Below, in pieces: positions 39,019 through 63,267 of a stretch of 64,000 nt of DNA (position 1 is the stretch's first letter; each line of letters begins with the position of its first letter). The notes under the pieces were generated by a model, which saw nothing but the letters and a program-made list of their open reading frames with translations, ran no database searches and was not told the origin of the DNA. Both the position numbers and the translations under genes were made by a program. Source of the stretch: a virus (lineage: Duplodnaviria; Heunggongvirae; Uroviricota; Caudoviricetes); IMG/VR virus record IMGVR_UViG_3300025326_000020. One strand, 5' to 3'.

Positions 39019-39090
39019 TACCCCTGGTCAGAATCGAACTGACGACATTCTTATTAAGAGTAAGAAGCTCTACCACTGAGCTACAAGGGC
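39019..39090 (-). tRNA. tRNA-Lys (anticodon CTT)
   Basis: hand-folded cloverleaf: D-arm GCTCAGTGGTAGAGC, anticodon arm TCTTA-CTCTTAA-TAAGA, T-arm GTCAG-TTCGATT-CTGAC; 72 nt. Confidence 0.7.
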
Positions 39091-39308
39091 ATTTCGTTAG
39101 GAGCACAATACGATTGTGACAGATCTCCGTCACCGTGTCAAGCCCCCAACAATATTGATGTTTATCGATGGACACTAGCTAAGGACGAGACATAGTAGCA
39201 CAACCAACACAGTTAATACAATAGCTGTGACAGGAATTCGAACTACGTGTTCCTCACCTGTTTCTTTATTACGAAAACCAACTTCAATGTACTGCAATTT
39301 AGAACCAG

Positions 39309-39794
39309 TCACTTTACTTCTGGAAAATTAAGTTTAGCATGTTCCCCAAAAGCAATTATTGCTGCTCTATCATATGCCAATGCGGCCTCTTCTTCCAATA
39401 AATAATAACCTATATGCTGTCTTTTACCATTTACTTGCACTCTTACATACCACATCCTGTTTGTATTCGACCAAGTTACACCTTTGTACTTAGATAATCC
39501 TGGTCTACGTTTGATGCTATTGGCTCTATTCAACATATAGGTTGTTGGTCGAAGATTTATACGTCTGTTGTCAAGACCATCACCATTTTGGTGATCAGTC
39601 ATTTTAAATCCTGTAAGTAATATATGCATTTTTTGCATAGATTTTAAACCAGAAATTTTAGTTATACTTCTTAATGCATAAAAGATATTACCTTGTAGAT
39701 TACAATACCATTTATACTGTGATACCAGATCGTAGTCTTCATCGTCTACAAGAGCTGACTTATCACTCCTAAAGAGTTCAACTTGTTTTACCAT
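39309..39794 (-). CDS. HNH homing endonuclease with AP2 DNA-binding domain
   Basis: DHQNGDGLDNRRINLR HNH motif; C-terminal AP2-like YKGVTW...WYVRVQVNGKRQHIGYYLLEEEAALAYD. Confidence 0.75.
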   Translation of the reverse strand: MVKQVELFRSDKSALVDDEDYDLVSQYKWYCNLQGNIFYALRSITKISGLKSMQKMHILLTGFKMTDHQNGDGLDNRRINLRPTTYMLNRANSIKRRPGLSKYKGVTWSNTNRMWYVRVQVNGKRQHIGYYLLEEEAALAYDRAAIIAFGEHAKLNFPEVK

Positions 39795-39806
39795 AAGGAT
39801 TGCTCC

Positions 39807-40286
39807 TTAAAACCATGAGTAGTACGACCAACGGTCGTCATAGTGGATCAGTGTTGGTTCTATACCATTCTTAATTTCATGGCACCACATAAGCATTCGA
39901 CCAACCCTACCGTTACCGTCACGGAATGGATGAATGCGCTCGAATGATATGTGTGCCACTCTTGGACTAAGCTCTTGGCAATCCTCAATCCAATCCTTCA
40001 TTAGTTGTGGTACATATAGTGGGTTTGGACATGTGCGTCCACCAACTTCTACCCAACAATCGCGCCATTTACCAGGATCTTTCATCAGACTGCGCATAAC
40101 ATTCCAATGTAAATTCTTGATAGAAGTTTCAGTAACATCAAGATTTAACAATTCTTCAAACGCTTCCATTGAAGCTTGGTCTTGCGTTTTGTGATTTACA
40201 CCTTCAATAAGGTTTGATTGTCTAATATGTTCCATTGTAATTTCAGTCATTGTCATCCCAATCGAATCCATCGTCCGGGTCATCAT
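39807..40286 (-). CDS. Fic-domain protein (putative AMPylating/adenylyltransferase toxin-like)
   Basis: canonical Fic motif HPFRDGNGRVGR. Confidence 0.7.
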   Translation of the reverse strand: MMTRTMDSIGMTMTEITMEHIRQSNLIEGVNHKTQDQASMEAFEELLNLDVTETSIKNLHWNVMRSLMKDPGKWRDCWVEVGGRTCPNPLYVPQLMKDWIEDCQELSPRVAHISFERIHPFRDGNGRVGRMLMWCHEIKNGIEPTLIHYDDRWSYYSWF

Positions 40287-40548
40287 CGTCAGCCCAGTCT
40301 AATTCTTTACGTACCTCTTGCTTTGCTGCGTAATGTGCTTCGATCTCCACAATATCCTCTTCCTGCTTTGGCTGTGGGATTTGCGTAAGACCAAGCACGA
40401 GTCGATCATAGTTCATTTTACTAGGCTTGCGGCATCTAGTGCAAACCCACAGACCTGATGGTGGATCAAGTGAGAAACCATCTTGCTTTTGCCATTTACC
40501 AGTTGAGTGGCAGTTACACCACGGCTTAATGTTCATCTGAGTTATCAT
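40243..40548 (-). CDS. hypothetical protein with acidic C-terminus
   Basis: ORF. Confidence 0.4.
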   Translation of the reverse strand: MITQMNIKPWCNCHSTGKWQKQDGFSLDPPSGLWVCTRCRKPSKMNYDRLVLGLTQIPQPKQEEDIVEIEAHYAAKQEVRKELDWADDDDPDDGFDWDDND

Positions 40549-40579
40549 TGTTGTCCATTTCTAGTAATATTTGGAGGAG

Positions 40580-40652
40580 TACCCCTAGAGAGATTCGAAC
40601 TCCCAACCTACGCGGTAGAAACGCGCTGCTCTGTCCGTTGAGCTATAGGGGC
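40580..40652 (-). tRNA. tRNA-Arg (anticodon TCT)
   Basis: acceptor GCCCCTA/TAGGGGT; D-arm GCTCAACGGACAGAGC; anticodon arm GCGCG-TTTCTAC-CGCGT; T-loop TTCGAAT. Confidence 0.7.
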
Positions 40653-40655
40653 ATG

Positions 40656-40729
40656 TCTCATTGGAGAGATTCGAACTCTCAATCACCACACTTTGAATGT
40701 GGTCGCTTTGCCAGTTAGCGCACAATGAG
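40656..40729 (-). tRNA. class-I tRNA with leucine-type anticodon CAA (identity uncertain)
   Basis: perfect acceptor CTCATTG/CAATGAG; anticodon arm CCACA-TTCAAAG-TGTGG; 5-nt variable loop; T-arm GAGAG-TTCGAAT-CTCTC; discriminator A. Confidence 0.6.
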
Positions 40730-40736
40730 GATTCAA

Positions 40737-40991
40737 TTATGGGCATGTCCAACCATGGGGACCAGTTGGCATGCCCGCTTTTATGTAGCAACTATCACAG
40801 AGGAAGTGTCCATTATTTGGATTATAAGTACCTTCTTCTCTGATAACAGCTTTTATTCTCTTAGCTTGACGTTCCTCTTCCGTCGTTGCATTGTATGAAT
40901 CTTCATCTTCTGCCCATGTTCCATCATATGAAGTCATATCTCTTGCGTATCGTTCGCACATCGGATCGTATGGTTCAGGTATTTCATCCAA
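40737..40991 (-). CDS. hypothetical protein
   Basis: ORF. Confidence 0.4.
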   Translation of the reverse strand: MDEIPEPYDPMCERYARDMTSYDGTWAEDEDSYNATTEEERQAKRIKAVIREEGTYNPNNGHFLCDSCYIKAGMPTGPHGWTCP

Positions 40992-41172
40992 GGGTTTTTA
41001 TCAGCTCCTCAGTAGCCTTACAGTGTTCTAGTACAGCATCCATAGCTTCCTCTTGACTAGCAAGATCAAATCCTGATGTCTTATGAATTCGGCATAGCCA
41101 ACACCAACCACGATATTTCCATACTCGTAGCGGTCGGGCGACCTTATAGTTCTTCACACTGGTTTCATCCAT
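40984..41172 (-). CDS. hypothetical protein
   Basis: ORF. Confidence 0.35.
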   Translation of the reverse strand: MDETSVKNYKVARPLRVWKYRGWCWLCRIHKTSGFDLASQEEAMDAVLEHCKATEELIKTLG

Positions 41173-41378
41173 TGACCTGGTGTACTCTTTCCACAGTATA
41201 GACAGTAATCATGGTCTGGTATGCCACATTGGTCACGTTCTGGAAGATGTCCAGCGAATACGCAAAGTAGCTTTGGCAACCACGTTATGTGGTCATAAAT
41301 ATAATTAGTTAACCACTCTGGTTTACCATCCCAGATCCATAGCATTATTCTACGTCTTATTATGATATTCGCTCCCAC
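41154..41378 (-). CDS. hypothetical protein
   Basis: ORF. Confidence 0.35.
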   Translation of the reverse strand: MGANIIIRRRIMLWIWDGKPEWLTNYIYDHITWLPKLLCVFAGHLPERDQCGIPDHDYCLYCGKSTPGQWMKPV

Positions 41379-42083: not shown

Positions 42084-42158
42084 GTTCTAGCGCAGAGGTT
42101 CGAACTCCAATTTCCAGATTCAGAATCTGGCGTCCTGCCAATTAGACGATGCTAGAAT
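42084..42158 (-). tRNA. tRNA-Gln-like (anticodon CTG); acceptor/D-arm registration is ambiguous
   Basis: anticodon arm CCAGA-TTCTGAA-TCTGG and T-loop TTCGAAC present; acceptor pairing TTCTAGC/GCTAGAA. Confidence 0.45.
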
Positions 42159-42164
42159 ATTTAG

Positions 42165-42389: not shown

Positions 42390-42600
42390 TGACGATAGTG
42401 TCTACCTGGCTTAGTCTATAAAATCCACTATCCTCATTGTATGGCATACCAGATGTTATATAATCTCTAGCTTCTTTTATGGTTTTGAACGATTTTATAG
42501 TTCGTCCACAACTTACTTGAAATGTTCTGAAATGCCACGGTTCTGGCGTTGTATATTTTGCATTGTGAGTCGTCACGAGCCAAGCGAGTGATTCGAACAC
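42355..42600 (-). CDS. hypothetical protein
   Basis: ORF; N-terminus overlaps tRNA-Thr by ~20 nt. Confidence 0.35.
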   Translation of the reverse strand: MFESLAWLVTTHNAKYTTPEPWHFRTFQVSCGRTIKSFKTIKEARDYITSGMPYNEDSGFYRLSQVDTIVIEQDGKKCYDA

Positions 42601-42649
42601 TCTACTCCTGTTTACAAGACAGGTGCTTTTCCCATTAAGCTAGCTTGGC
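42578..42649 (-). tRNA. tRNA-Thr (anticodon TGT)
   Basis: acceptor GCCAAGC/GCTTGGC; anticodon arm CCTGT-CTTGTAA-ACAGG; T-arm GAGTG-TTCGAAT-CACTC. Confidence 0.7.
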
Positions 42650-42657
42650 ATATTCAA

Positions 42658-43161
42658 TTATTCAAGCACCTTTTCGTATTGCTGTGGAAGTGTCCAACCT
42701 AGCAGTGATAGTCTACGCAGTGAGGTAGCAACCATACCACTACCTTGACCCGTAATTGGTGTATTGCCCATGACCTCTTCCATAATTCTTACGTAGTCAC
42801 GATCAATGATTAGGTATGGCAATAGGTTACTGACAATTACAACCATACCAGCACCAGTAACAGTCCATCGAGCTATTGCTGGAAGATAAAGATTTTCTAC
42901 TGGGACTTCACCTACGTGAGTGTGTGCATGTGGACAATGTTCTGAACATCCACGACGCATAAAATCTCTTACAGGTTGTGGTTTCTTTGCGTCAGCCTTT
43001 AAACCAGTTAGTACGCCAAGCTCTTGAATAACTGCAATCTCTTTACTTTCAACAGATAGTATAATTTGTGGAGTCGCTCGTTGCTTGTTGTGTTTACGCA
43101 GAAATCTTCCTTTTAAATCTATGACTCCTGCCATCCATCCTAGTTTAATATCTGGTATCAT
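42658..43161 (-). CDS. hypothetical protein with a degenerate LAGLIDADG-like motif
   Basis: GWMAGVIDLKGRF near the N-terminus; His/Cys cluster CSEHCPHAHTH. Confidence 0.4.
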   Translation of the reverse strand: MIPDIKLGWMAGVIDLKGRFLRKHNKQRATPQIILSVESKEIAVIQELGVLTGLKADAKKPQPVRDFMRRGCSEHCPHAHTHVGEVPVENLYLPAIARWTVTGAGMVVIVSNLLPYLIIDRDYVRIMEEVMGNTPITGQGSGMVATSLRRLSLLGWTLPQQYEKVLE

Positions 43162-43186
43162 CTTTATTCCTTTTTGTTGTCATGTG

Positions 43187-43261
43187 TACCGACGGTCAGA
43201 CTTGAACTGACAACCACTAACTTATAAGGTTAGCCGCACTGACCAATTGGCGTACGTCGGC
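43187..43261 (-). tRNA. tRNA-Ile (anticodon TAT)
   Basis: acceptor GCCGACG/CGTCGGT; anticodon arm CTAAC-CTTATAA-GTTAG; T-arm GTCAG-TTCAAGT-CTGAC. Confidence 0.6.
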
Positions 43262-43289
43262 TCGCCCCGAAGGGCTTTGTGCTTTTCTA

Positions 43290-44125: not shown

Positions 44126-44413
44126 TTACTTCTTGCAGGTCGGATCATTTGGCACTACGGCAATGGCGCCATAGGGACTGTCACTATGGAAGAGTACATA
44201 CAAACGATTGCCATGATCACACTTAGTGGCCGCATTCGAGAATCCATCAGGCATGACAATAATATCGGCTGATTCAGTATTTTCAGTACCTGATCGTGGA
44301 GCATCGTTAAACGGTTCCTTTGCTTTGGCCCCACAACTAGTGGACAAGGCAACCGCAAGAATCCCAACAATTAGGCAAGCAAATAATGGTAGCAAAGACT
44401 TAATTTTAGTCAC
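44126..44413 (-). CDS. lipoprotein
   Basis: signal peptide with lipobox LSTSC. Confidence 0.55.
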   Translation of the reverse strand: MTKIKSLLPLFACLIVGILAVALSTSCGAKAKEPFNDAPRSGTENTESADIIVMPDGFSNAATKCDHGNRLYVLFHSDSPYGAIAVVPNDPTCKK

Positions 44414-45429
44414 TACTTGCCTCCGGCATTAGCACTAACAAGTACACCGCCACCAGCGGCCAAACATAGACCCGGCGGAACTCCCATCTTAACCGATTCC
44501 TCTATGCACTTGTTTTGTACATAAAGAGGTGTCAAAACCTGGGCTAGAAGGTCAGAAACGGCCTTTTCAGCCAGGGCGTTTGTCTTCTTCTGTGCTAGTA
44601 CTCTAGCCTGCGCGATAACATCCTGGAACTGCTGAATGTTCTTTTCAGTTTGTGCATCATGGTGTACTAGTGGAATGGATACAGTCTTGACATCTACCAG
44701 ACCGTCAAATGCCGTTACCAGCTTGTTCTTAACATCTGTTTGTAGCTGGGTACCATCAAACCCAACCTGACCAGTCTGTAGATTTACCTGAGACAGGGGG
44801 TTATAGGTTGCAAAAACGTCGTTAAGCGCGTTCTGAATAACTGTTTCATACAGATTGTTCTTAACATTATTGAAATCACCCTTGTAGTCAAGGAACAACT
44901 TAGGTGCACCAGTCTCAGTAACCTGTAGCTGGATCCTATTCTCTACACATGCAGTAGCAAGTGAGCCAATACGTACGGTAGTACAACCTTCCTTCCAATT
45001 ACCAAGATGGTTGATTGTGACTACAGACGCATCGAAGTCCTCAACACTCTGCCAAGGCCAAACGAAGTGCAAACCGCTACCTGTGGTGTCTCCAGTAGGA
45101 CGGTTGAACGTGCTAACAATACCAACATTCCGTACTGGCACAGTGTATGCACTAGCAAAGAACATTAATATAGCAGCTAACGAAGCTAGTGCAATTGTTA
45201 CTACCTTAGAGGAATTATGTTCAGCAGCAGCAGCAGATTCCATATCCTTCTTTGATGGGCGATCAACATAAGCTCGATAGTCGCTACTTGCGGTATCTGC
45301 TGCCACAGCCTTATCGTATTCACTTTTTGCCTCAATGAAATCTTTCTTTGCTGATTTCTTCCACAAAAAAGCAAGAACAGCAAGAACAGCAACAGTGATG
45401 CCTAGTACAAATTCCCAGCTCAATTTCAT
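44413..45429 (-). CDS. membrane-anchored SPFH/band-7 domain protein
   Basis: N-terminal transmembrane helix; VRNVGIVSTFNRP...GLHFVWPW resembles the SPFH core. Confidence 0.5.
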   Translation of the reverse strand: MKLSWEFVLGITVAVLAVLAFLWKKSAKKDFIEAKSEYDKAVAADTASSDYRAYVDRPSKKDMESAAAAEHNSSKVVTIALASLAAILMFFASAYTVPVRNVGIVSTFNRPTGDTTGSGLHFVWPWQSVEDFDASVVTINHLGNWKEGCTTVRIGSLATACVENRIQLQVTETGAPKLFLDYKGDFNNVKNNLYETVIQNALNDVFATYNPLSQVNLQTGQVGFDGTQLQTDVKNKLVTAFDGLVDVKTVSIPLVHHDAQTEKNIQQFQDVIAQARVLAQKKTNALAEKAVSDLLAQVLTPLYVQNKCIEESVKMGVPPGLCLAAGGGVLVSANAGGK

Positions 45430-45461
45430 TCCTTAAATAGTTGTCATTTTGACGTGTTACG

Positions 45462-45532
45462 TTCAAGCACCTAGATTCGAACTAAGACTACCATATCCAA
45501 AGTATGGTGGGCTACCCTTACCCCATGCTTGA
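45462..45532 (-). tRNA. tRNA-Gln (anticodon TTG)
   Basis: perfect acceptor TCAAGCA/TGCTTGA; anticodon arm CCATA-CTTTGGA-TATGG; T-arm CTTAG-TTCGAAT-CTAGG. Confidence 0.65.
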
Positions 45533-46329: not shown

Positions 46330-46330
46330 G

Positions 46331-46403
46331 TCCCCCCGACAGGACTCGAACCTGCGTCTATGCCTTAAAAGGGCACAGCTAATTCCATCTCAGCTACGGA
46401 GGG
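46331..46403 (-). tRNA. tRNA-Lys (anticodon TTT)
   Basis: acceptor CCCTCCG/CGGGGGG; anticodon arm GTGCC-CTTTTAA-GGCAT; T-arm GCAGG-TTCGAGT-CCTGT. Confidence 0.65.
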
Positions 46404-47432: not shown

Positions 47433-47433
47433 G

Positions 47434-47504
47434 CTCCCATACCTGGAATCGAACCAAGATCATGTGATTAACAGTCACAGGTTTTGCCATTAAACTATAC
47501 GGGA
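47434..47504 (-). tRNA. tRNA-Asn (anticodon GTT)
   Basis: acceptor TCCCGTA/TATGGGA; D-arm GTTTAATGGCAAAAC; anticodon arm TGTGA-CTGTTAA-TCACA; T-arm CTTGG-TTCGATT-CCAGG. Confidence 0.7.
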
Positions 47505-48522: not shown

Positions 48523-48966
48523 TTAAGATAAGCCTCTGTGCTTATCACGTCTGATTTTAGCACACTTCTTACAAGTGCGCTTGTTCTTACTGTTCATCAG
48601 ATTGTCCTCGGTTAGAGGATGTCCACGCAGACAGAATTCTTTTTCAGAATTTATTTTACTGATACCATGTAAACCTTCGCGTGAAGCGTTGGCATTAATT
48701 GTTTTAGGTTCCATATGATATGGATTACAGCATATCGAGTTGTCGCACAGATGATCGATAACCAAACCATTTGGTATATCACCAATTAATAACTCATATG
48801 CAACACGATGAGCGTAGTAATGAAAACCTCTTAATCTAAAGTCGCCATACCCTTTACCTGCTGAGACTACACTCTTAGTCCAAGGCCAACAACCCTCTGG
48901 ACCAGTGAGATCTACCTTAGACCAAAAGGTAGAAATCTCAATGTACTCAATAGGAAAGGTCGTCAT
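48523..48966 (-). CDS. HNH endonuclease
   Basis: GLVIDHLCDNSICCNPYHMEP HNH core. Confidence 0.65.
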   Translation of the reverse strand: MTTFPIEYIEISTFWSKVDLTGPEGCWPWTKSVVSAGKGYGDFRLRGFHYYAHRVAYELLIGDIPNGLVIDHLCDNSICCNPYHMEPKTINANASREGLHGISKINSEKEFCLRGHPLTEDNLMNSKNKRTCKKCAKIRRDKHRGLS

Positions 48967-49159: not shown

Positions 49160-49235
49160 CCTCCTTGATTCAGTAGCAAGAATCGAACTTGCACATTGAC
49201 GCCGAGTAACCAGCCGCCTCTTCCATTTGGGCTAT
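49160..49235 (-). ncRNA. tRNA-like element or pseudogene with no foldable anticodon arm
   Basis: perfect acceptor TTCAGTA/TACTGAA and T-arm GCAAG-TTCGATT-CTTGC; 74 nt; central region fails to form a 5-bp/7-nt anticodon arm. Confidence 0.4.
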
Positions 49236-49368
49236 ACTGAACTTAGTAAGTTAAGGTTACTGCTAGCGACCTCCACAGCATACGTACGATACTGACGGAA
49301 CCCATTCGCCTGACCCGTATAGTCCTACTGCCATCGTGCCCGTCGACACTCCCTCACCTTAACTTACG

Positions 49369-49441
49369 CGCGATCGACCGGATTCGAACCGGCATACCCC
49401 ACCTTGACAGGGTGGTTCATTAACCATTATGATACAACCGC
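49369..49441 (-). tRNA. tRNA-Asp (anticodon GTC)
   Basis: acceptor GCGGTTG/CGATCGC (two G-U pairs); D-arm TCATAATGGTTAATGA; anticodon arm CCACC-CTGTCAA-GGTGG; T-arm GCCGG-TTCGAAT-CCGGT. Confidence 0.65.
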
Positions 49442-49854: not shown

Positions 49855-50046
49855 TTATAACTCCACTAGTTCTATTCGTGTACTATAGTTGAATCATCAT
49901 ATTCAGTTGGCCCGTCCTTGTACAACTCACGGTACTGTTTGAGTCCAATTGAAAACTCGAACGCGCGGTCGCTATCACCTTTGATTTCCGCACGCTTTAT
50001 TTCAAGTAAGTATTCACGTTCAATAGTATCAAACTTCTTGCTCATG

Positions 50047-50119
50047 TGGACAGTATCGGATTCGAACCGATCGCCTTCGCATTGCAGGTGCGATGCTCTA
50101 CCTAATGAGCTAACCGCCC
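50047..50119 (-). tRNA. tRNA-Ala (anticodon TGC) with unusual C33
   Basis: D-arm GCTCATTAGGTAGAGC; anticodon arm TCGCA-CCTGCAA-TGCGA; T-arm ATCGG-TTCGAAT-CCGAT. Confidence 0.6.
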
Positions 50120-51218: not shown

Positions 51219-51247
51219 GATATCCCTTTTGTTATAGTTTAATTGAG

Positions 51248-51319
51248 TAGTCCCATAGGGAATCGAACCCTATCCTACGCGGTGAAAGCGCGCAAAGCTA
51301 ACCAATACTCAATGGGACC
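51248..51319 (-). tRNA. tRNA-Glu (anticodon TTC)
   Basis: acceptor GGTCCCA/TGGGACT; anticodon arm GCGCG-CTTTCAC-CGCGT; T-arm TAGGG-TTCGATT-CCCTA. Confidence 0.65.
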
Positions 51320-52092: not shown

Positions 52093-52175
52093 CTGAATAA
52101 TATAAGAAGCCGCTCTTTGAACCTCTAGTACTTATGCGGTCCGTACTGTGTTACGAGTCTAAGCTACACCTGACG

Positions 52176-52247
52176 TCGGGATAGAAGGAATTGAACCTTC
52201 TGCCTCTCGCTCCCAAAGCGAGCGTTCTTCCGATGAACTATATCCCG
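52176..52247 (-). tRNA. tRNA-Pro (anticodon TGG)
   Basis: perfect acceptor CGGGATA/TATCCCG; anticodon arm CTCGC-TTTGGGA-GCGAG; T-arm GAAGG-TTCAATT-CCTTC. Confidence 0.7.
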
Positions 52248-52387
52248 TATGTATTAGGAGGGGAATTAGTTTTGCTGGCGCTAGCAATTCCATGGATACC
52301 ATTGCACTCTTTGAGGAACCAGACAGCGATCAACTTGCTGGCGATGCATAGTCGTCAACTACATCCCCTGTCTAACACGACTACCTG

Positions 52388-52460
52388 TCGACTACTCAGG
52401 AGTTGAACCTGAATCTCCCATGTTATCAGCATGGTGCTTTACCTGTTAAGCTAATAGTCG
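52388..52460 (-). tRNA. tRNA-Ile (anticodon GAT)
   Basis: acceptor CGACTAT/GTAGTCG; D-arm GCTTAACAGGTAAAGC; anticodon arm CCATG-CTGATAA-CATGG; T-arm TCAGG-TTCAACT-CCTGA. Confidence 0.7.
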
Positions 52461-52631
52461 TTGGATGGTGATGAAAATTACCTCACATCCATGTTTCTAT
52501 CTAATCGGCCAGATCGTATAGCATGGATTCTTTTGGCTCTAATCAACGGAGTATGAACAGAACGGCTCACTTGTTAACATACTCTTTTACCATCTAGGTT
52601 TCCTATAGATCGTGCACTATCTACTGGTCCC

Positions 52632-52712
52632 GTGGGTCGGAAGGATTCGAACCTTCATCACCGGCATTGCTGCCCGCTCTACCATTTGAGCTACTAACCC
52701 TCGAACAGCGCA
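52632..52712 (-). ncRNA. tRNA-like element: canonical D-arm and T-arm, GNRA tetraloop hairpin (GGCA-GCAA-TGCC) in place of the anticodon arm, mismatched acceptor; 3' side ends in the CGACCCAC repeat
   Basis: D-arm GCTCAAATGGTAGAGC; T-arm GAAGG-TTCGAAT-CCTTC; no anticodon loop; 5'/3' acceptor strands not complementary. Confidence 0.45.
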
Positions 52713-53165: not shown

Positions 53166-53381
53166 CTAGATTTCCTCTTGATCACTAGGCTGTCTATGTT
53201 GCTTACGCTTGTTCTTAATTGCGTAGAATGTCCTATTTAACCGTTTTGCTAGTTGCTGGATGCTTAGATCACCAGTGGCTATCAGTGCAATCTCCCAGTC
53301 TTCCCACGGTTGGTGGTTTCTGGTTGCATATGCTAACGATCTGGCTTGACGTGATTGCTCTATTGCTTTTCTTCTAGCCAT
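53166..53381 (-). CDS. small HTH DNA-binding protein (start moved to internal Met to clear the tRNA)
   Basis: LSIQQLAKRLNRTFYAIKNKR helix-turn-helix-like. Confidence 0.4.
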   Translation of the reverse strand: MARRKAIEQSRQARSLAYATRNHQPWEDWEIALIATGDLSIQQLAKRLNRTFYAIKNKRKQHRQPSDQEEI

Positions 53382-53411
53382 AATTTCCAAAGTTTCTACT
53401 ATTTTACGAAG

Positions 53412-53484
53412 TGCTCTCAGAGGGATTCGAACCCTCACTTATCAGGACTTAAATCTGATGCCTCTGCCGTTGGGCTATGAGAGC
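53412..53484 (-). tRNA. class-I tRNA with leucine-type anticodon TAA (identity uncertain)
   Basis: perfect acceptor GCTCTCA/TGAGAGC; anticodon arm TCAGA-TTTAAGT-CCTGA (one A.C mismatch); T-arm GAGGG-TTCGAAT-CCCTC; discriminator A. Confidence 0.55.
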
Positions 53485-53626
53485 TTGTGTTGGAATCATC
53501 GAACTTCTTAAAACATGCTTGACATTGTATAAACCTAGTATTATTTATTGCGACCCCTAAATAATACACCTCATCTTGACCACATTGCGGACAAGAGTAG
53601 GACATCTTCTTCATTTGAGTCTCCAA
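53435..53626 (-). CDS. small zinc-ribbon protein (C-terminal 16 codons run through the tRNA)
   Basis: CPQCG...CQAC. Confidence 0.35.
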   Translation of the reverse strand: METQMKKMSYSCPQCGQDEVYYLGVAINNTRFIQCQACFKKFDDSNTSSHSPTAEASDLSPDK

Positions 53627-54221: not shown

Positions 54222-54363
54222 TGCCTCGATCGCTGGACTTGAACCAACAACCTCCAACTTAGCATCCCAGATCACTGTGGCCACAGCTCCCCTTTGTCTA
54301 AAACATGTGTGTACACACATGTTTTAGTTTTGTCGGTGCTCTATCCAATTGAGCTAGATCGAG
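54222..54363 (-). ncRNA. candidate Y RNA (YrlA-like tRNA mimic): tRNA scaffold with ~75-nt insertion replacing the anticodon arm
   Basis: perfect 7-bp acceptor CTCGATC/GATCGAG; canonical D-arm TAGCTCAATTGGATAGAGC; T-arm GTTGG-TTCAAGT-CCAGC; insertion contains a 14-bp perfect hairpin CTAAAACATGTGTG/CACACATGTTTTAG and the 12-nt palindrome CTGTGGCCACAG; ~290 nt 3' of the Ro60 orthologue on the same strand. Confidence 0.5.
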
Positions 54364-54434: not shown

Positions 54435-54653
54435 CTAACCCGGGAGACTAGTTGTTATAGTACGTGAATACAATTCATCCAGCCTTGTATCAATAGGACG
54501 CTTGAAATAAAAACGAACACTACCAATGTGGGTTGCGAGTGGATGAGCTGATACCAATTCCCAACCCTGTAGACCTAAAGAATCTAAGATCTCTTGCTGG
54601 TTATCAGGGTGACGAGCAACTTCGGTTTTGTATTCCCACAACACGTGAATCAT
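54435..54653 (-). CDS. small DUF4177-like protein
   Basis: LGLQGWELVS motif; overlaps the rsr stop. Confidence 0.4.
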   Translation of the reverse strand: MIHVLWEYKTEVARHPDNQQEILDSLGLQGWELVSAHPLATHIGSVRFYFKRPIDTRLDELYSRTITTSLPG

Positions 54654-56281
54654 ATGTTACCAGCCGAGAATTGTGATACCAGTGCTGGTAGATTAGCGTC
54701 GCCACCAACTACGTCTAACATTCCACGATCGCTAGGATCTGCAATCGTAAAGTTGGTAGCAGATGCAGCCGCAACAATCAGCTTAGCATCAATACCTGTC
54801 TTCTGTCGGTACTGCTTTATTGCCTGGAATGGATGTACGTCACCAAACCAAGTCTCATTGTCAGTGTATATCATAAAGGTATCGACTGCAATGTTGTGCT
54901 TGGCAGCGTAAAGCATCGGCTGTGCACAATCCGTACGACCAAACGACATACTGTTAGTAATTCGCAGAACATCATCTAGACGCATTCCAGGAGAAATACC
55001 TAGATCCTTCATTACATCTGAGAAACCAAAGGCTAGATAGAATGGCTCAGTCTTAGCAACTGAAAGGACCATTGCCGCACCAAGTTCAGCAGCAGTCAGA
55101 TCTAGTCCTGATGCAGCCTGCTTCATTGAACCAGAAACGTCAAGACCAATGAAGAATCTCTTGTTCGATGGCTCAACATAACTAAAGGACTTGTAGAATG
55201 CATCGTTCAATGCATCCACAATTACTGGTGAAGTTGTCCAGTCCTTAGGCTTATAAGCTGCTGGACCACCGAAGCCCATAGGGTATTTATATCCACCCTG
55301 TGTCTCACGAGCAATTTGACCCTTAGTATGCACCATTAGTGCAAGCAAGAACTGAATAGGGTGTAGTCTGGTCTTCTGAATCATTGTCTCGTTAGTGAGC
55401 GCGGTTGCAATCTCACGAGCGAACACCATATCGTTGAACATACCCAATCTTGCAAAGCGAGTAATGTTACGAACAAGTGCCTGACCAGTGAGCTGTCCAT
55501 TGCGGTAAAGCTGATGCCAGACTCTCGGTTCCTTATGGTACTGAGTTGGCACAACTTCCCATGGTAGACCAGGAACAGCTTCTAGTACATTCAAAAGTTC
55601 TTCAACATTTGGTGCTGCCTGTGCAATCTTAAAACCTGCAACTAGTTGGTGTTCACCACTATCAAAGCCAGTCTTACCAAGGATGAACTCACCAATACCT
55701 GGTACAAAACTGCCCTTAACGTGTGATAGTCTAAACATATCACGATGAGTCCAACCGTCGCGCTGGCGATACTTAACCGCCTGGTAGGCTAGCTGGTCTG
55801 GCGTCTTGTGGGTGTACCAGTCAGCTACCGCACGGCGCTTGGTCTTGCCCCAACCACCACCACCGTAATAAGTTCCTAGGTACTTTGCGAACTCATACAG
55901 CATAGTAGATGTACGGCACACACGCTGCACCAAGCTAGATAGGTCACGCTTCTTACCATATTTACCAAGTGCCGCCACTACAAAGACAGCGTACTTGTTA
56001 CGGAAAGCACGACCAGATTCTGAAACTTCCAGAACTGTGTCAATAACTAGCTGCTCATCACGATCAATTAGATCAATTAGGAAGTTCACGTTTTCACGTG
56101 TAAGAGGCTTCTCATCCTGGTAGTAGGTACCTTTCTCAGTACCAACAATTAGGAATCTTTCAAGTCTAACCTTGTCTGATACAGCGAAGACAAACCCACC
56201 AGCATTGTTCTTAACCTGATCTAGTCGAGCCTGCTCACGCTGTGTTGATGCAGTAAGGCTGCGAGAAAATACGTCACTCAT
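54650..56281 (-). CDS. rsr: Ro60/Rsr orthologue (TROVE domain + C-terminal vWA domain)
   Basis: N-terminal VRLERFLIVGTEKGTYY aligns with the human Ro60 RLHRFLCFGSEGGTYY region; C-terminal vWA with MIDAS FFIGLDVSGSM; 543 aa, typical Ro60 size. Confidence 0.8.
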   Translation of the reverse strand: MSDVFSRSLTASTQREQARLDQVKNNAGGFVFAVSDKVRLERFLIVGTEKGTYYQDEKPLTRENVNFLIDLIDRDEQLVIDTVLEVSESGRAFRNKYAVFVVAALGKYGKKRDLSSLVQRVCRTSTMLYEFAKYLGTYYGGGGWGKTKRRAVADWYTHKTPDQLAYQAVKYRQRDGWTHRDMFRLSHVKGSFVPGIGEFILGKTGFDSGEHQLVAGFKIAQAAPNVEELLNVLEAVPGLPWEVVPTQYHKEPRVWHQLYRNGQLTGQALVRNITRFARLGMFNDMVFAREIATALTNETMIQKTRLHPIQFLLALMVHTKGQIARETQGGYKYPMGFGGPAAYKPKDWTTSPVIVDALNDAFYKSFSYVEPSNKRFFIGLDVSGSMKQAASGLDLTAAELGAAMVLSVAKTEPFYLAFGFSDVMKDLGISPGMRLDDVLRITNSMSFGRTDCAQPMLYAAKHNIAVDTFMIYTDNETWFGDVHPFQAIKQYRQKTGIDAKLIVAAASATNFTIADPSDRGMLDVVGGDANLPALVSQFSAGNI

Positions 56282-56329
56282 TCTCCGACCCCTTCCGGGA
56301 TATTTTAGTGTTAGTTTTGTTTGGTTAAG

Positions 56330-56422
56330 TGGAGGTATAAGGATTCGAACCTTATCTACACAGTTAGCTAAACTGCGCTCATTAGGTGGCTATCCTAATG
56401 GCCCGTGACCCCCAAGGTACGT
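56330..56422 (-). ncRNA. tRNA-like structured element 5' of rsr (T-arm plus two hairpins; acceptor not closable)
   Basis: T-arm TAAGG-TTCGAAT-CCTTA; hairpins CATTAGG-ATAGCCA-CCTAATG and CAGTT-TAGCT-AACTG. Confidence 0.35.
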
Positions 56423-56454
56423 TGGATATAATTTAAATATAGGCGTGCGCAGGA

Positions 56455-56560
56455 TCATGGGTTCCGATTTGAACGGAAGTTTCACATCTACGATGTGTGT
56501 CTTGCCACATTAGACGACCCTTGATAACCTATACTCGTCCGACCCAACGTAATGTTAGTA
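56455..56560 (-). ncRNA. tRNA-like member of the GTGGGTCGGA repeat family
   Basis: 5' GTTGGGTCGGA-CGAG-TATAGGTTATC; 3' T-arm-like TCCG-TTCAAAT-CGGA followed by ACCCA, which pairs with the 5' TGGGT. Confidence 0.35.
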
Positions 56561-57969: not shown

Positions 57970-58054
57970 GCGGTGAAGGTAGGATTTGAACCCACGGTGC
58001 TTTTACACACTTCCGCTTTCAAGGCGGATGCCTTAAGCCTCTCGGCCACTTCAC
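57970..58054 (-). tRNA. tRNA-Ser (anticodon TGA), type II
   Basis: perfect acceptor GGTGAAG/CTTCACC; anticodon arm TCCGC-CTTGAAA-GCGGA; long variable arm GTGTGTAAAAGCAC; T-loop TTCAAAT; 85 nt. Confidence 0.7.
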
Positions 58055-58105
58055 CAAACTTTATATATGTTTCCATGTTCTTCTAGCTATAAGTTCTCTT
58101 ATTAA

Positions 58106-59370: not shown

Positions 59371-59736
59371 TAGATTCCTAACACTGTGCAGAAACAGACA
59401 GTAGTGCTAGGAATCGAATAAGAAGTCTGTTTCCGCTCCTATATGATTATTAAGTTGTAGCGAAACCTCTCAGCCCTTATGGTTTCATGGGAGCCCTCAA
59501 CAATTGTGCCGCTCCTACTACACACCATACCATTTCAGTGGCATCTGGTATGGCAGCCACCAACGTTAATACCTAACAAGTTCGGCGAAATCCTACGGGG
59601 GAGGAGCCGAACGATTCAGGTATTTCTACAGCCACCGTGACTCTAATAATAAGAACACATTAGTTGTTTCACACACTGATCCCTAAGGAGAGAGTTGTGT
59701 ACAGGTCTCCTGTACCACCATGACTAATGTGTTCAG

Positions 59737-59808
59737 TGCTTTCAACAGGACTCGAACCTGTGCACTCCCGGCTTCAACGGGATGCTCTACCAGCTAAGCT
59801 ATGAAAGC
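59737..59808 (-). tRNA. tRNA-Phe (anticodon GAA)
   Basis: perfect acceptor GCTTTCA/TGAAAGC; D-arm GCTTAGCTGGTAGAGC; anticodon arm TCCCG-TTGAAGC-CGGGA; T-arm ACAGG-TTCGAGT-CCTGT. Confidence 0.75.
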
Positions 59809-59950
59809 ATAACATTAGCTTCTCTTTTCAGAACTCTATGGAAGCTCTTGATGTCTCCAACATCTGTGATCGTATGTTTGACCACGTAGACACCAACGTT
59901 TGATACATAATCTTTTGTGTGGAAATTTTCTATTGAACCATGCTTTCACG

Positions 59951-60022
59951 AGACGCCAGTAGGATTCAAACCTACGTAGATTGGATTTGCAATCCAATGC
60001 CTAATCACTCGGCCATGACGTC
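59951..60022 (-). tRNA. tRNA-Cys (anticodon GCA)
   Basis: acceptor GACGTCA/TGGCGTC; anticodon arm TTGGA-TTGCAAA-TCCAA; T-arm GTAGG-TTTGAAT-CCTAC. Confidence 0.6.
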
Positions 60023-60029
60023 ATTCTTA

Positions 60030-60167: not shown

Positions 60168-60225
60168 AACTCTCCAATTGATTATAGCGTATGGATATGT
60201 TTATTGATATCGGATATCTTATGTC

Positions 60226-60251
60226 GTTAACCGATTTCATCCGACCCATAC
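60226..60251 (+). repeat. GTTAACCGA-N6-TCCGACCCA repeat copy
   Basis: matches 63892..63916. Confidence 0.5.
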
Positions 60252-60280
60252 GTGAGATACCATTCCCGTGGTTGATCTCG

Positions 60281-60352
60281 TGGTCATAGAAGGAGTCGAA
60301 CCTTCAGGGCTATTGCTTTACAGGCAACGCCAGACACCATATCAGTACGACC
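60281..60352 (-). tRNA. tRNA-Tyr-like (anticodon GTA) with short variable loop and atypical D-arm
   Basis: acceptor GGTCGTA/TATGACC; anticodon arm GTTGC-CTGTAAA-GCAAT; T-arm GAAGG-TTCGACT-CCTTC. Confidence 0.4.
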
Positions 60353-60531
60353 AATTTATTACGTAGTGTGAGGCCATATCATGTTCGGACAAGAACAAAG
60401 AATACACCGAAAAGGTGTCCCTGGATCAGTTGGATCAAGATTGAGTGTGTCATCTAGACGGTGATCATCGCTGCTATGTTCACAGCTTGTACAATTTTCA
60501 GGTTCCATAATCAACACTCACTTTCTTATAG

Positions 60532-60604
60532 GGTGTATGACGGGATTCGAACCCGCGAATGAATAGGATCACAACCTATTTCCTGATGCCCCCGGATCAT
60601 ACAC
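60532..60604 (-). tRNA. tRNA-His (anticodon GTG)
   Basis: acceptor GTGTATG/CATACAC; anticodon arm ATAGG-TTGTGAT-CCTAT; T-arm GCGGG-TTCGAAT-CCCGT. Confidence 0.55.
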
Positions 60605-60606
60605 AG

Positions 60607-60679
60607 TACCAACGGTGGGACTTGAACCCACACTTTACGGCACCTAAAGCCGTTCCCTCTGCCATTGGGGTACGTTGGC
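60607..60679 (-). tRNA. class-I tRNA with leucine-type anticodon TAG (identity uncertain)
   Basis: acceptor GCCAACG/CGTTGGT; anticodon arm ACGGC-TTTAGGT-GCCGT; 5-nt variable loop; T-arm GTGGG-TTCAAGT-CCCAC; discriminator A. Confidence 0.6.
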
Positions 60680-61526: not shown

Positions 61527-61725
61527 TTTTAACTCTCCAATTAAGGGGAGCAAAAAGAAAAATGGTTCCGATTTGTTAACTAGAGTTTGGGAACCAAAAA
61601 CCATTTCTCCATCTACACTGAATTTTTACAGGCGCTTTAACGTCAGCCCAAAAATTATGTAGACTCAAACGTGGCGACGGTTAACCTTTACAAACCCGAA
61701 GGTTACAGTGTTAACAAACTGGACG

Positions 61726-61810
61726 CGAAAGATATAGGATTCGAACCTATGGAGGTTTTACCCTCAACGAGTTAGCAACTCGTCCCATTAAGCCACTCTG
61801 GCAATCTTTC
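61726..61810 (-). tRNA. tRNA-Ser (anticodon GCT), type II
   Basis: perfect acceptor GAAAGAT/ATCTTTC; anticodon arm ACGAG-TTGCTAA-CTCGT; variable arm GAGGGTAAAACCTC; T-arm ATAGG-TTCGAAT-CCTAT. Confidence 0.6.
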
Positions 61811-61896
61811 TCACTGGTATAGAATAATCTATACCAGCTAGTCACAAATGTTTGTCAGAATTTGTGACAACTCTATGCGCGGGTGCGAGCCTATCG

Positions 61897-61967
61897 AACG
61901 GCCTACCAGGATCGAACTGGCATACTCTGGGTGGAGGCCAGATTCCTTACCATTAGGATAAGGCCGC
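61897..61967 (-). tRNA. tRNA-Gly (anticodon TCC) with unusual C33
   Basis: acceptor GCGGCCT/AGGCCGT; D-arm TCCTAATGGTAAGGA; anticodon arm TCTGG-CCTCCAC-CCAGA; T-arm GCCAG-TTCGATC-CTGGT. Confidence 0.6.
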
Positions 61968-62149
61968 AAGTCCAAGGTAACACTGGCTCCAATGTTACCT
62001 TGGAGTAAAGTCCAGAGTAGTACAAGGGACGAGAAGTGTGGATGGGCAACCCGCCCAATACTACTCTGGAGTAAAGCCTAGCTAGTCCCAGAGGACAGCT
62101 AGGAGCTATGGAGTGTGGATATGTTATGAGATCGGGTTTGGACTAGGCG

Positions 62150-62223
62150 CCATGCCTTTTCGTCAGGAATCGAACCTGAATCGTCTGATTAATAGTCAGA
62201 TAACCAATACTCTTCCGACCCAC
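62150..62223 (-). ncRNA. tRNA-like member of the GTGGGTCGGA family (anticodon-like loop CTATTAA; no closable acceptor)
   Basis: 5' GTGGGTCGGA-AGAG-TATTGGTTATC; hairpin TCTGA-CTATTAA-TCAGA; T-arm TCAGG-TTCGATT-CCTGA. Confidence 0.4.
62199..62223 (+). repeat. GATAACCAATA-N4-TCCGACCCAC repeat copy
   Basis: matches 63577..63601 and 56523..56548. Confidence 0.5.
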
Positions 62224-62359
62224 ACTCTGAGTCACTAAATTGATAATGATGCATGACATTGGCTTATTAACGCATACTCCTCACATACTGCAAGGTATCT
62301 GTGTCCTGGGTCATGACTCCAGTTAGGCACCCCGGGCACCTATCATATACCAACATCAT

Positions 62360-62445
62360 CCGCAAAGGTGGAGAGATTCGAACTCTCATAATCGGTTTTG
62401 GAGACCAATCAGCACAACCTACGCTCACCGATAAGGTGGCCATCC
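62360..62445 (-). ncRNA. tRNA-like structured element (T-arm GAGAG-TTCGAAT-CTCTC plus long-range 8-bp helix TAATCGGT/ACCGATTA)
   Basis: no canonical cloverleaf. Confidence 0.3.
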
Positions 62446-62842
62446 ATTTGGTTAGCAAGGCGATGGCCTATTCCTTGTATTATAGCTTATCTACAGATCG
62501 CGTTTAGTTTTTTCAGTAGAGCTGACGTTTCATCATGGCTCAGCTAATTCCATGACTTCTATAGATAAACTGTTTTGAATAGTACAATCGAACGATCTGA
62601 CTAACCTTTAACAGGGCCAACTGTTTGCGTTCAGATAGTATGGTTACTCCGGCTAAGAGCCATAGCGTTTGATTGTACAATAGACTCGCCATTTCTGGCG
62701 TCGCAGTACAATCTTGTTTGCCAAGACTATACTACTAAAAGCTTTTCGTGGCCGGGGACGAGATCCCACGCTTCCACAACCATACACTGCAACTAATCGG
62801 CAAACTAGTGTTGCAAATGTACCAAGCCTCTTACTGGTTCCG

Positions 62843-62915
62843 TACCATTAGTAGGATTCGAACCTACAACCTCATGCTTCGGAAGCATTTGCTCTATCCA
62901 TTGAGCTATAACGGT
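62843..62915 (-). tRNA. tRNA-Arg (anticodon CCG)
   Basis: acceptor ACCGTTA/TAATGGT; D-arm GCTCAATGGATAGAGC; anticodon loop TTCCGAA on ATGC/GCAT stem; T-arm GTAGG-TTCGAAT-CCTAC. Confidence 0.6.
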
Positions 62916-63050
62916 GTACGCCCACCAACATTCTACAGCGTAAAGCTTGACAGGCTTCATATGCTTATGAATGGTAGGTAAAGGCAGGTCTCCATAAACC
63001 CTACGTTGCTCACTGCCTCTTTGCCCGTCACGGCATACCAACAGTGCATG

Positions 63051-63137
63051 TACCATCGGTAGGACTCGAACCTACATACCGTACAGCCGTCGCTGGCCTG
63101 CTAATACGCAGGTGCTCTGCCATTGAGCTACGATGGT
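63051..63137 (-). ncRNA. type-II tRNA-like gene with aberrant 6/8-nt anticodon loop (GTATTA)
   Basis: perfect acceptor ACCATCG/CGATGGT; D-arm GCTCAATGGCAGAGC; stem CCTGC/GCAGG; 21-nt variable region; T-arm GTAGG-TTCGAGT-CCTAC; 87 nt. Confidence 0.4.
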
Positions 63138-63195
63138 ATAAAAGCGGAGGCCAGAGGGAATATAAGCTAGACATCCGACTGGACCTCCGTTTAAG

Positions 63196-63267
63196 CACGC
63201 TTAGTAGGAATCGAACCTACATCCTTAGTTCCGTAGACTAAAGCTCTCTCCGTTGAGCTATAAGCGT
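63196..63267 (-). tRNA. tRNA-Arg (anticodon ACG)
   Basis: perfect acceptor ACGCTTA/TAAGCGT; D-arm GCTCAACGGAGAGAGC; anticodon arm TTAGT-CTACGGA-ACTAA; T-arm GTAGG-TTCGATT-CCTAC. Confidence 0.75.

Follow-up and report, generated by a model that had tools for sequence, protein, structure and literature searches.

In bacteria and in some phages, the protein Ro60 (Rsr) works together with Y RNAs encoded near its gene, and one or more of these mimic a tRNA (PMC4201824). Three features have been used to recognize these RNAs, namely, a GNCGAAN0-1G motif near the 5' end, which is the likely Ro60 contact, a tRNA-like domain, and a position on the same strand as the Ro60 gene and no more than 4 kb from it (PMC4201824). 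In the Thermus phage phiLo, Ro60 binds two phage-encoded Y-like RNAs as well as the host polynucleotide phosphorylase, PNPase (PMC12135203). Known loci of bacteria and phages carry about two Y RNAs beside Ro60. Here, we describe a Ro60 gene accompanied by a larger family of Y RNA-like elements inside a tRNA gene array, in a stretch of 64,000 nucleotides from a tailed phage (Caudoviricetes; IMG/VR record IMGVR_UViG_3300025326_000020), hereafter the window.

We propose, with a probability of roughly 0.7, that this region is one conserved, co-oriented RNA-gene module, which combines a tRNA decoder, Ro60 with an expanded Y RNA-like family, and tRNA-like RNAs that cannot decode. Taken by itself, the tRNA array is an ordinary feature of a kind known from phages. 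What is unusual is that each genome of this clade holds 5-9 of the Y RNA-like elements, dispersed through about 8 kb of the array. The genes, their structures, their conservation and covariation, and the association with Ro60 are direct observations, and they are reported before the functions that we propose for them.

A Ro60 gene and its Y RNA-like elements

The Ro60 gene (54650-56281, minus strand), which had been overlooked in an earlier, sequence-only reading of this DNA, lies inside the tRNA array and encodes 543 amino acids. The product matches the TROVE domain (PF05731, 5e-35) and the Ro60-type von Willebrand factor A domain (PF25045, vWA_Ro60, 2e-58) of Pfam. Its residues 16-542 align with Deinococcus radiodurans Rsr (PDB 2nvo, 2e-91) and with Xenopus Ro60 (PDB 1yvp, 1.5e-89), and it is about 51% identical to a 'Ro-like RNA binding protein' of Streptomyces phages. 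By these matches it is a full-length member of the Ro60/Rsr family, predicted to bind RNA.

Relatives of the window were obtained through protein database and exact-contig look-ups. A 45-kb contig of the European Nucleotide Archive, L002, encodes an open reading frame (ORF) product identical to one from the window, shows the same tRNA spacing and reaches 7.6 kb past the right edge of the window. In addition, Ro60 homologues with 54-60% identity led to five long uncultured contigs, termed L004, L005, L006, L007 and L012.

The Y RNA-like elements share one architecture. Their ends pair in an outer helix of 8-9 bp, which encloses a 5' loop strand, UCGGA, and an inner helix whose first strand ends in GGUUA(U/A)C; a module that varies between copies follows, after which the inner helix is completed by its return strand, and the element closes with a 3' loop strand that ends in ACAUA and the 3' strand of the outer helix. 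The window has 15 occurrences of the motif GGTCGGA, compared with an expectation of 3.4, and a strict scan of the window for the whole architecture returned six elements on the minus strand and none on the plus strand, against 0.15 expected. When a relaxed scan was extended to the relatives, 37 elements were found on the Ro60 strand and two on the opposite strand, against 5.3 expected. The inner helix did not enter the search, yet all 36 elements have it. By a permutation test in which the partner strands were exchanged between elements, this helix has a mean length of 7.9 bp with its own partner and 5.3 bp with the partners of other elements, and none of 2000 permutations reached the mean of 7.9 bp. 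Moreover, five of the six complete elements of the window fold better than shuffled sequences, with z between -2.0 and -5.0.

All copies lie on the Ro60 strand. Six are complete and one is cut by the edge of the window, and the genome total, counting L002, is eight. The copy nearest to Ro60 (56419-56550; z = -3.0), 138 nt upstream of the gene, carries a full cloverleaf in non-permuted order as its module; besides being found by the scans, it has a consensus structure conserved in five genomes, with compensatory changes in 24 of 40 pairs. The copy at 63380-63509 has the topology of YrlA, with a T-arm followed by a D-arm, and lacks the acceptor hairpin, which is present in some of its orthologues. 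It was found by the scans and by orthologue alignment, it aligns end to end with the Rfam YrlA model (32.2 bits, E = 4.9e-5 in a local search), and 9 of the 21 pairs of its orthologue consensus are compensatory. A tRNA-like domain comprising T-arm and D-arm is thus found in 63380-63509, T before D, and in the cloverleaf of 56419-56550, while 62112-62226 (z = -2.0), whose module consists of a T-arm and two hairpins, has the T-arm only, on which the Rfam tRNA model scores 24 bits.

The other three complete copies are of hairpin type, like the published YrlB and Yrn2. These are a short hairpin of 65 nt (60188-60252; z = -2.4), about 3.9 kb from Ro60, a long, YrlB-like hairpin (63520-63605; z = -5.0), and an element with two apical hairpins (63808-63919; z = -4.4); all three, as well as 62112-62226, were recovered by the scans and supported by the inner-helix test. 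At the right edge, 63928-64000 is the 3' part of a copy with a GCCGGA variant and a T-arm, which is complete in L002 (7529-7677).

Three other matches were set aside. The GGTCGGA at 45865 is a chance match inside an ORF, that at 56290 coincides by chance with the ribosome-binding site and start of Ro60, and a candidate 5' half at 59586 was left uncounted for want of closing helices. A non-coding gap of 365 nt between tRNA-Phe and an M23 peptidase gene (59371-59735, minus strand) folds at -47.7 kcal/mol for 171 nt and contains a half-motif, GCCGAA...UUAAC, but lacks closing helices; this could be a further RNA gene or a degenerate copy of the Y-like type.

These elements also bear on annotation. 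The cloverleaf of the Ro60-proximal element is called a tRNA by ARAGORN, Rfam or both in L004 (8338-8409), L006 (9287-9356), L007 (9563-9635) and L005 (8821-8889), with an anticodon that differs by genome (Gly gcc, Arg gcg, Asn att). Since the family falls below the Rfam threshold, and tRNA finders assign an arbitrary anticodon to the inner cloverleaf of some copies, contamination is likely in the tRNA counts and anticodon tables of such phages, and the tRNA inventories of the deposited genomes of Streptomyces cluster BE phages may be affected too.

Comparison with described Ro60 and Y RNA systems

Two elements with the same signature stand directly upstream of Ro60 in each of three other phages, namely, Mycobacterium phage I3, Gordonia phage BearBQ and Streptomyces phage Coruscant. 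In side-by-side folds, the signature comprises the outer helix, GYCGRA, ...CGG-UUAYC, the ACAU loop and the 3' strand of the outer helix. One of the two elements is tRNA-like and the other a hairpin in both I3 and BearBQ. The published motif in its exact form, GUCGAA or GCCGAA, is present in family members of L005-L007, L012, I3 and Coruscant. Even I3, from the genus where a phage YrlA was first reported, scores only 36 bits against the Rfam YrlA model. Because the same design adjoins Ro60 in these distant phages, we group the elements of the window with the Y RNAs of YrlA/YrlB type.

The likeness to YrlA and YrlB, as described in bacteria and Bixzunavirus (PMC4201824; RF02553), extends to the closing helix, the 5' GNCGRA, the module of T- and D-arms and the location on the Ro60 strand. 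YrlA/YrlB loci hold one tRNA-like and one hairpin RNA each, and both types occur in the window; I3 shares the GGUUAYC and the ACAU loop. Unlike YrlA and YrlB, the elements of the window score below the Rfam threshold, carry the GUCGGA variant, have lost the acceptor hairpin in the YrlA-type copy, and number eight rather than about two, spread over about 8 kb of tRNA array. The pairing of a Ro60 orthologue with local Y RNAs is likewise shared with the D. radiodurans complex of Yrn1/Yrn2, Rsr and PNPase (RYPER) and with Ro60 and Yrl1/Yrl2 of phiLo (PMC12135203), and, as in Yrn1, the D-arm precedes the T-arm without permutation in the cloverleaf element beside Ro60. The window contains no PNPase gene, and it differs from those two systems in copy number and in its tRNA-array context.

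Expansion of a Y RNA family to many copies is also seen in the stem-bulge RNAs of nematodes, which are multi-copy Y RNA homologues of eukaryotes that have no tRNA-like modules. The likeness is limited to the stem-bulge design, a BearBQ element giving a weak Rfam match to ceN72-3/ceN74-2. Full-text literature searches alone found no description of multi-copy Y RNA arrays in phages or of Y RNAs in BE phages.

The tRNA genes

ARAGORN called 27 tRNA genes, all on the minus strand within 39018-63267 and none in the other 39 kb of the window, whereas the Rfam tRNA model (RF00005) gave 26 matches at or above its gathering threshold of 29 bits; 24 genes are common to both. Only ARAGORN called His(GTG), a Tyr(GTA)-like gene (26.8 bits in Rfam, below 29) and a 'Ser(ACT)', and only Rfam called 52633-52700 (35 bits) and 62363-62421 (29 bits). 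The region therefore has what defines a phage tRNA gene cluster, that is, many above-threshold and co-oriented tRNA genes within 24 kb in a phage context.

These results bear out the main counts of the sequence-only reading, which had found more than 23 tRNA genes on the minus strand. Its 23 anticodon species were all recovered, 21 by both programs, His by ARAGORN only and the Tyr-like gene at the sub-threshold score above, so clearly more than half of the genes that it listed were confirmed. The tight pairs that it pointed out are real, with Arg(TCT) and Leu(CAA) 2-3 nt apart and His and Leu(TAG) 1-2 nt apart. Its estimate of at least ten degenerate copies is about right as a number, which is made up of the six complete and one truncated Y RNA-like elements, four non-decoding tRNA-like genes, a tRNA-Trp remnant and the atypical Tyr. 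It fared less well with the ORFs between the tRNAs. Those described as tiny zinc ribbons are scarce, given that only four of about 45 plausible small ORFs contain at least two CxxC motifs, and the ORFs said to overlap tRNAs do exist, but most engulf a whole tRNA and are probably spurious.

The genes, all on the minus strand, are given here with their Rfam scores; unless stated otherwise, each was also called by ARAGORN. The left end of the array begins with Lys(CTT) at 39018-39090 (67.2 bits), followed by Arg(TCT) at 40579-40652 (66.4 bits), Leu(CAA) at 40655-40729 (56 bits), Gln(CTG) at 42084-42156 (49.7 bits), Thr(TGT) at 42577-42649 (66.6 bits) and Ile(TAT) at 43186-43261 (54.3 bits). Further along come Gln(TTG) at 45461-45532 (55.9 bits), Lys(TTT) at 46330-46403 (57.5 bits), Asn(GTT) at 47433-47504 (63.2 bits), Asp(GTC) at 49368-49441 (62.8 bits), Ala(TGC) at 50046-50119 (63.3 bits), Glu(TTC) at 51247-51319 (52.1 bits), Pro(TGG) at 52175-52247 (67 bits), Ile(GAT) at 52387-52460 (59.4 bits) and Leu(TAA) at 53411-53484 (57.4 bits), which is the last before Ro60. 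Beyond Ro60 lie Ser(TGA) at 57970-58055 (60 bits), Phe(GAA) at 59736-59808 (66.7 bits), Cys(GCA) at 59950-60022 (59.7 bits) and the Tyr(GTA)-like gene at 60280-60352, whose D arm is atypical. Next is His(GTG) at 60531-60604, an ARAGORN-only call with an encoded G-1 and an unusual D arm; L004 has a tRNA-His at the same position after Leu(TAG). The array closes with Leu(TAG) at 60606-60679 (57.6 bits), Ser(GCT) at 61725-61810 (52.6 bits), Gly(TCC) at 61896-61967 (54.5 bits), Arg(CCG) at 62842-62915 (68.4 bits) and Arg(ACG) at 63195-63267 (65 bits).

In all 25 tRNA genes checked, the discriminator base is followed by C74 and none encodes the full CCA, a pattern that is unusually uniform and that implies dependence of these tRNAs on a CCA-adding enzyme. 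The tRNA-Leu(TAA) gene sits at the junction of ORFs 53166-53438 and 53435-53626 and overlaps them by 28 and 50 nt; the equivalent ORFs of L004 do not overlap its tRNA-Leu(TAA), and the overlaps may be mis-called ORF ends.

The order of the tRNA genes in the window is essentially that of L004-L007 and L012. The shared order runs from Val and Met, through a gene-poor stretch, to Arg(ACG), Trp, Gly(TCC), Ser(GCT), Leu(TAG), His, Cys, Phe, Ser(TGA) and Ro60, and continues after Ro60 with Leu(TAA), Glu/Ile(GAT), Pro, Tyr, Ala, Asp, Asn, Lys(TTT), Gln(TTG), Thr, Arg(TCT) and Lys(CTT). Most of these five relatives have a Band_7 gene further downstream, and their tRNA complement varies somewhat. As judged by this comparison, the array is old and conserved rather than a recent accretion.

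The closest cultured parallels are the Streptomyces cluster BE phages (Stanwilliamsviridae; Comrade, Coruscant), with genomes of about 130 kb, about 44 tRNAs, a transfer-messenger RNA (tmRNA) and the 'Ro-like RNA binding protein'. As in BE phages, the tRNAs of the window occupy one strand, scattered among small ORFs and HNH genes, and the module includes Ro60 (about 51% identical) as well as a Band-7 gene; Leu(CAA) tRNAs of the short form and GUCGGA/GUCGAA Y-like elements upstream of Ro60 are likewise shared. The two differ in that there is no nucleotide similarity between them, the window encodes PolA and a primase of less than 30% identity where Comrade has a DnaE-type polymerase, and a search of the window found no tmRNA, RNA ligase or polynucleotide kinase. 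The Y-like copies of BE phages, about 2-3 in number, cluster at Ro60, compared with the eight dispersed copies of this genome. With only the tRNA/Ro60/Band-7 module in common, the phage does not fall within Stanwilliamsviridae. The tRNA clusters of T4, T5 and huge phages, with up to about 67 tRNAs, also consist of co-oriented tRNA genes with small ORFs and homing endonucleases between them, and that of T4 additionally encodes small stable tRNA-like RNAs. To our knowledge, these classical clusters do not include Ro60 or Y RNA families.

The reported absence of Val, Met, Trp and canonical Leu tRNAs is true of the window but has a different cause in each case. Val(TAC) and Met(CAT) are missing because the window boundary falls before them, as they are found on L002 at the equivalent of about 65.1 and 64.8 kb, past the right edge. 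Trp has decayed, in that 62362-62432 is the remnant of a tRNA-Trp(CCA), with two acceptor-stem mismatches, identified by Rfam (29.0 bits), low-threshold ARAGORN and alignment; in the relatives, a Trp(CCA) gene comes next after Arg(ACG), and the remnant is at that syntenic position. Finally, Leu tRNAs are present but armless. Around the Val and Met genes, at L002 6491-6753 and 6830-7040 (equivalent to about 64.6-65.1 kb), there are further T-arm-like sequences, e.g. GTAGGTTCAAATCCTAC, so more tRNA-like RNAs are probably encoded just beyond the right edge of the window.

The genes for Leu(CAA), 75 nt, Leu(TAA) and Leu(TAG), 74 nt each, and the Tyr-like tRNA, 73 nt, have a variable loop of 4-5 nt and not the stem-loop of about 10 nt or more that characterizes class II tRNAs. 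Alignment confirms this for the Leu tRNAs, all of which retain A73, and aligns the Tyr-like gene with a short Tyr of L006. Syntenic alignment further shows that the long arm of Leu(TAG) is kept in L006, L007 and Comrade and lost in the window, L004 and L005; that of Leu(TAA), among the loci aligned, is present in L005 only; and that of Tyr is kept in L004, L005, L007 and Comrade and lost in the window and L006. The long variable arm of Ser tRNAs, by contrast, is kept in every case, including both Ser genes of the window. Arm loss has thus been repeated and lineage-specific in three Leu isoacceptors and Tyr (window, L004-L007 and locus L001), with syntenic orthologues in both forms. Among synthetases that act independently of the anticodon, seryl- and alanyl-tRNA synthetases (SerRS, AlaRS) need the long arm or G3:U70, according to established identity rules. 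By exclusion, therefore, leucyl-tRNA synthetase (LeuRS) is the only plausible candidate to charge the armless Leu tRNAs. For the LeuRS of Mycobacterium tuberculosis, recognition of the long arm has been proposed to be critical (PMC3561953), which puts charging in an actinobacterial host in question. The loss of the long arm in Leu and Tyr tRNAs, and never in Ser tRNAs, amounts to a natural experiment on synthetase identity rules.

Regarding decoding, there is one U34 tRNA for each of the four-codon boxes Thr, Ala, Pro, Ser, Gly, Val and Leu-CUN, and the set also includes G34 or U34 tRNAs for two-codon boxes, Ile(GAU), Ile(UAU), and extra C34 tRNAs for Lys, Gln, Leu and Arg. It is thus a near-minimal complete decoder and not a handful of tRNAs for rare codons. 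The phage ORFs are rich in A and T at third codon positions (GC3, the G+C fraction at these positions, is 0.37), and the set covers 72% of phage codons under standard wobble, or 98.4% if U34 reads four ways, which leaves UGG alone unread. The heavy translational reprogramming of the sequence-only reading is plausible in the sense of such supplementation, with the comparison to the host being presumptive. The roughly 25 functional tRNA genes (27 with Val and Met) would let this AT3-rich phage translate largely without the tRNA pool of its host, which could be of use in compensating for the codon usage of a host presumed to be high in GC, in surviving when host tRNAs are depleted or cleaved, or in both.

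tRNA-like genes that cannot decode

Four further genes on the minus strand have intact acceptor, D and T arms, together with an anticodon arm that cannot decode, and two of them recur in relatives. The gene at 49167-49241, which is the 'Ser(ACT)' of ARAGORN and has no Rfam match, folds with a 4-nt loop on its anticodon arm. It shares 93% identity over the core with its orthologue in L004 (16147-16221), in which the acceptor and T stems have changed in a compensatory way and the aberrant arm is nearly invariant. At 52631-52702 (Rfam, 35.3 bits), the fold shows a 4-bp anticodon stem capped by a GCAA tetraloop. At 63050-63137, which ARAGORN reports as 'tRNA-???' and Rfam scores at 50.3 bits, there is a 6-nt loop, GUAUUA, and a long variable arm; the gene is a paralogue of the flanking Arg tRNAs, and a look-alike is found in L005 (11765-11852), just after Ro60.

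The fourth, 54224-54363 (Rfam, 38.8 bits; z = -4.0), lies 290 nt downstream of Ro60, and its anticodon loop is replaced by a 71-nt insert of two palindromic hairpins. In the relatives, tRNA-like genes next to Ro60 likewise lack an anticodon arm or carry an insert there. Overall, on these sequence comparisons, the four genes look selected rather than decaying, and it is a reasonable guess that they act as mimics or decoys for tRNA-binding proteins. One of the two hairpins in the insert, at 54298-54327, is a perfect 13-bp palindrome that on the plus strand reads as an intrinsic terminator, a stem followed by TTTTG, and that may stop antisense transcription into the array.

Proposed function and alternative explanations

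By analogy with known Ro60-Y RNA particles, we infer that the Y RNA-like elements are expressed, bound by Ro60 and of physiological use. The asymmetric internal loop, with 5' GUCGGA and 3' ACAUA, would be the Ro60-binding site, and the variable part would be an effector module, whether a full cloverleaf, a permuted tRNA mimic of T-arm and D-arm, a lone T-arm or plain hairpins. Docked on Ro60, such modules could recruit or gate other factors, for instance host PNPase or tRNA-handling enzymes. A bolder version, which we offer as speculation and hold to be improbable as a whole, is that 5-9 adaptors within a self-sufficient tRNA operon form a library that steers one Ro60 ring to several host enzymes or RNA substrates, with the anticodon-less mimics acting as decoys or sponges that divert host factors which bind tRNA, among them those of tRNA-targeting immunity. 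Since the copies come with a natural series of modules and with clear covariation, they offer existing variants on which recruitment by the modules could be tested, and the same type of element is carried by relatives in culture, the Streptomyces BE phages. The interest lies mainly in RNA biology and in the annotation of phage genomes.

Several observations weigh against the integrated module that we favor. Apart from the Ro60-proximal copy, the complete copies are 3.9-7.6 kb away from the gene, and four of these five, at 5.8-7.6 kb, are well past the 4 kb of the literature. The copies of the window carry GUCGGA, one base off the published GNCGAA, with the terminal helix in all of them, and the relatives carry both forms. 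The YrlA-type copy, 63380-63509, gives no thermodynamic signal (z = -0.8), and the gathering score of the Rfam YrlA model, 69 bits, is reached neither in the window, where the best score is 32.2, nor in any relative. The search pattern found no copies in L013, another Ro60 relative, or in Microbacterium phage Cece, both of which may carry other variants. Further, the argument from codon compensation is indirect, the host being presumed.

Among other explanations, the repeated hairpins could be processing or punctuation signals of a tRNA precursor, or sites for another protein, with no relation to Ro60. They are indeed interleaved with tRNAs, one copy lying 4-5 nt from tRNA-Arg(ACG) in L004 and L007, and most are several kb from Ro60. 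However, BearBQ, a temperate phage of 55 kb whose 11.6-kb Ro60 region has no annotated tRNAs, shows the same architecture immediately before Ro60, on its upstream side. In addition, the 5' motif matches the published Ro60-contact motif, and one copy aligns with the YrlA model, so we consider such signals quite unlikely. That the elements are intrinsic terminators, or mobile repeats of the repetitive extragenic palindrome or miniature inverted-repeat transposable element type, would agree with their being intergenic, multi-copy hairpins, but we find it very hard to sustain. No U-tracts follow the elements, none is terminator-like on its own strand, and terminator sites number 9 against 8.8 expected. 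As for repeats, copies within a genome share loop motifs only and their stems are all different, which means that they have not been transposed recently; they also keep the orientation of Ro60 (37 versus 2) and are positional orthologues across genomes. A promoter explanation found no enrichment in the window.

Another possibility is that the non-canonical copies are functionless pseudogenes, decaying after tandem duplication and loss of tRNAs, much as in the birth-and-death debris of the sequence-only reading. This holds for the Trp(CCA) remnant, with its mismatches and 29 bits at the syntenic site, and fits the trio of Arg(ACG), the odd 63050-63137 and Arg(CCG), which look like local paralogues, as well as the differences in tRNA complement between relatives. 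Most copies, however, are conserved and structured. Two helices are kept by compensatory changes within and between genomes, loop motifs are conserved, there are positional orthologues, and the elements recur next to Ro60 in unrelated phages; in the orthologue of the 'Ser(ACT)' gene, stem changes are compensatory and the aberrant anticodon region has hardly varied. Because of the synteny of the tRNA order, the co-varying stems, the co-orientation with Ro60 and the matches in distant phages, debris applies to a minority of copies, and as a general account it is unlikely, if slightly less so than processing signals. More deserving of attention, although still doubtful, is that the array serves mainly as counter-defence, replacing tRNAs lost to anticodon nucleases or host shut-off, with the anticodon-defective genes as decoys. 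Phage tRNAs are known to evade anticodon nucleases, retron effectors and PARIS (PMC10264068, PMC11555353, PMC11464382), and both the completeness of the minimal decoder, as opposed to a selection of rare codons, and the conservation of non-decoding tRNA mimics speak for it. In contrast, no defence or anti-defence protein was identified in the analysis of the window, and the GC3 of 0.37, together with actinophage-like relatives, also fits plain codon compensation. The two roles are not mutually exclusive.

The phage genome and other genes of the array

The first 19 kb of the window are a structural module on the plus strand, with protease, tape-measure and minor tail genes, as expected for a tailed phage. 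After 19 kb, the minus strand encodes PolA, a primase, an exonuclease and a SNF2 helicase, and then the tRNA region. Megablast gave no match between the whole region and GenBank phages, the best matches of PolA and primase are to assorted actinophages at less than 33% identity, and IMG/VR scans with Ro60 and a neighbouring ORF of 424 amino acids as queries retrieved no relatives. The source is a large, divergent tailed phage, probably an actinobacteriophage.

The genes among the tRNAs include HNH endonucleases, a Fic/DOC protein, helix-turn-helix regulators, DUF6197, I36-inhibitor-like, Band_7 and endolysin-like proteins, and an M23 peptidase. The Band_7/SPFH gene (44413-45429, minus strand), identified by Pfam, is a conserved companion of the tRNA/Ro60 module. 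It co-occurs with Ro60 in this module in L004, L005, L007, L012, Comrade and Microbacterium phage Cece, and in Cece it is immediately upstream of Ro60. ORFs for homing endonucleases of HNH/AP2 type are interspersed in the array (39309-39794, 42658-43161 and 48523-48966 in the window; 7139-7545 in L002). The one in L002, just beyond the window, has a Y-like element on either side, and it runs into the start of the second of these.

ORF 39807-40286 (minus strand), at the distal end of the array, belongs to the Fic/DOC family (Pfam, 1e-14), and Fic ORFs are found at the matching relative position in L006 and L007. Enzymes of the Doc type target translation factors, and a link between this ORF and the tRNA module is conceivable. 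Lastly, the G+C content, about 0.43 elsewhere, rises locally to 0.55 at 16001-18000. This peak covers ORFs 16740-17492 and 17489-19246, with which the structural module ends; shortly after it, near 19-20 kb, the coding strand switches and the GC skew changes sign.

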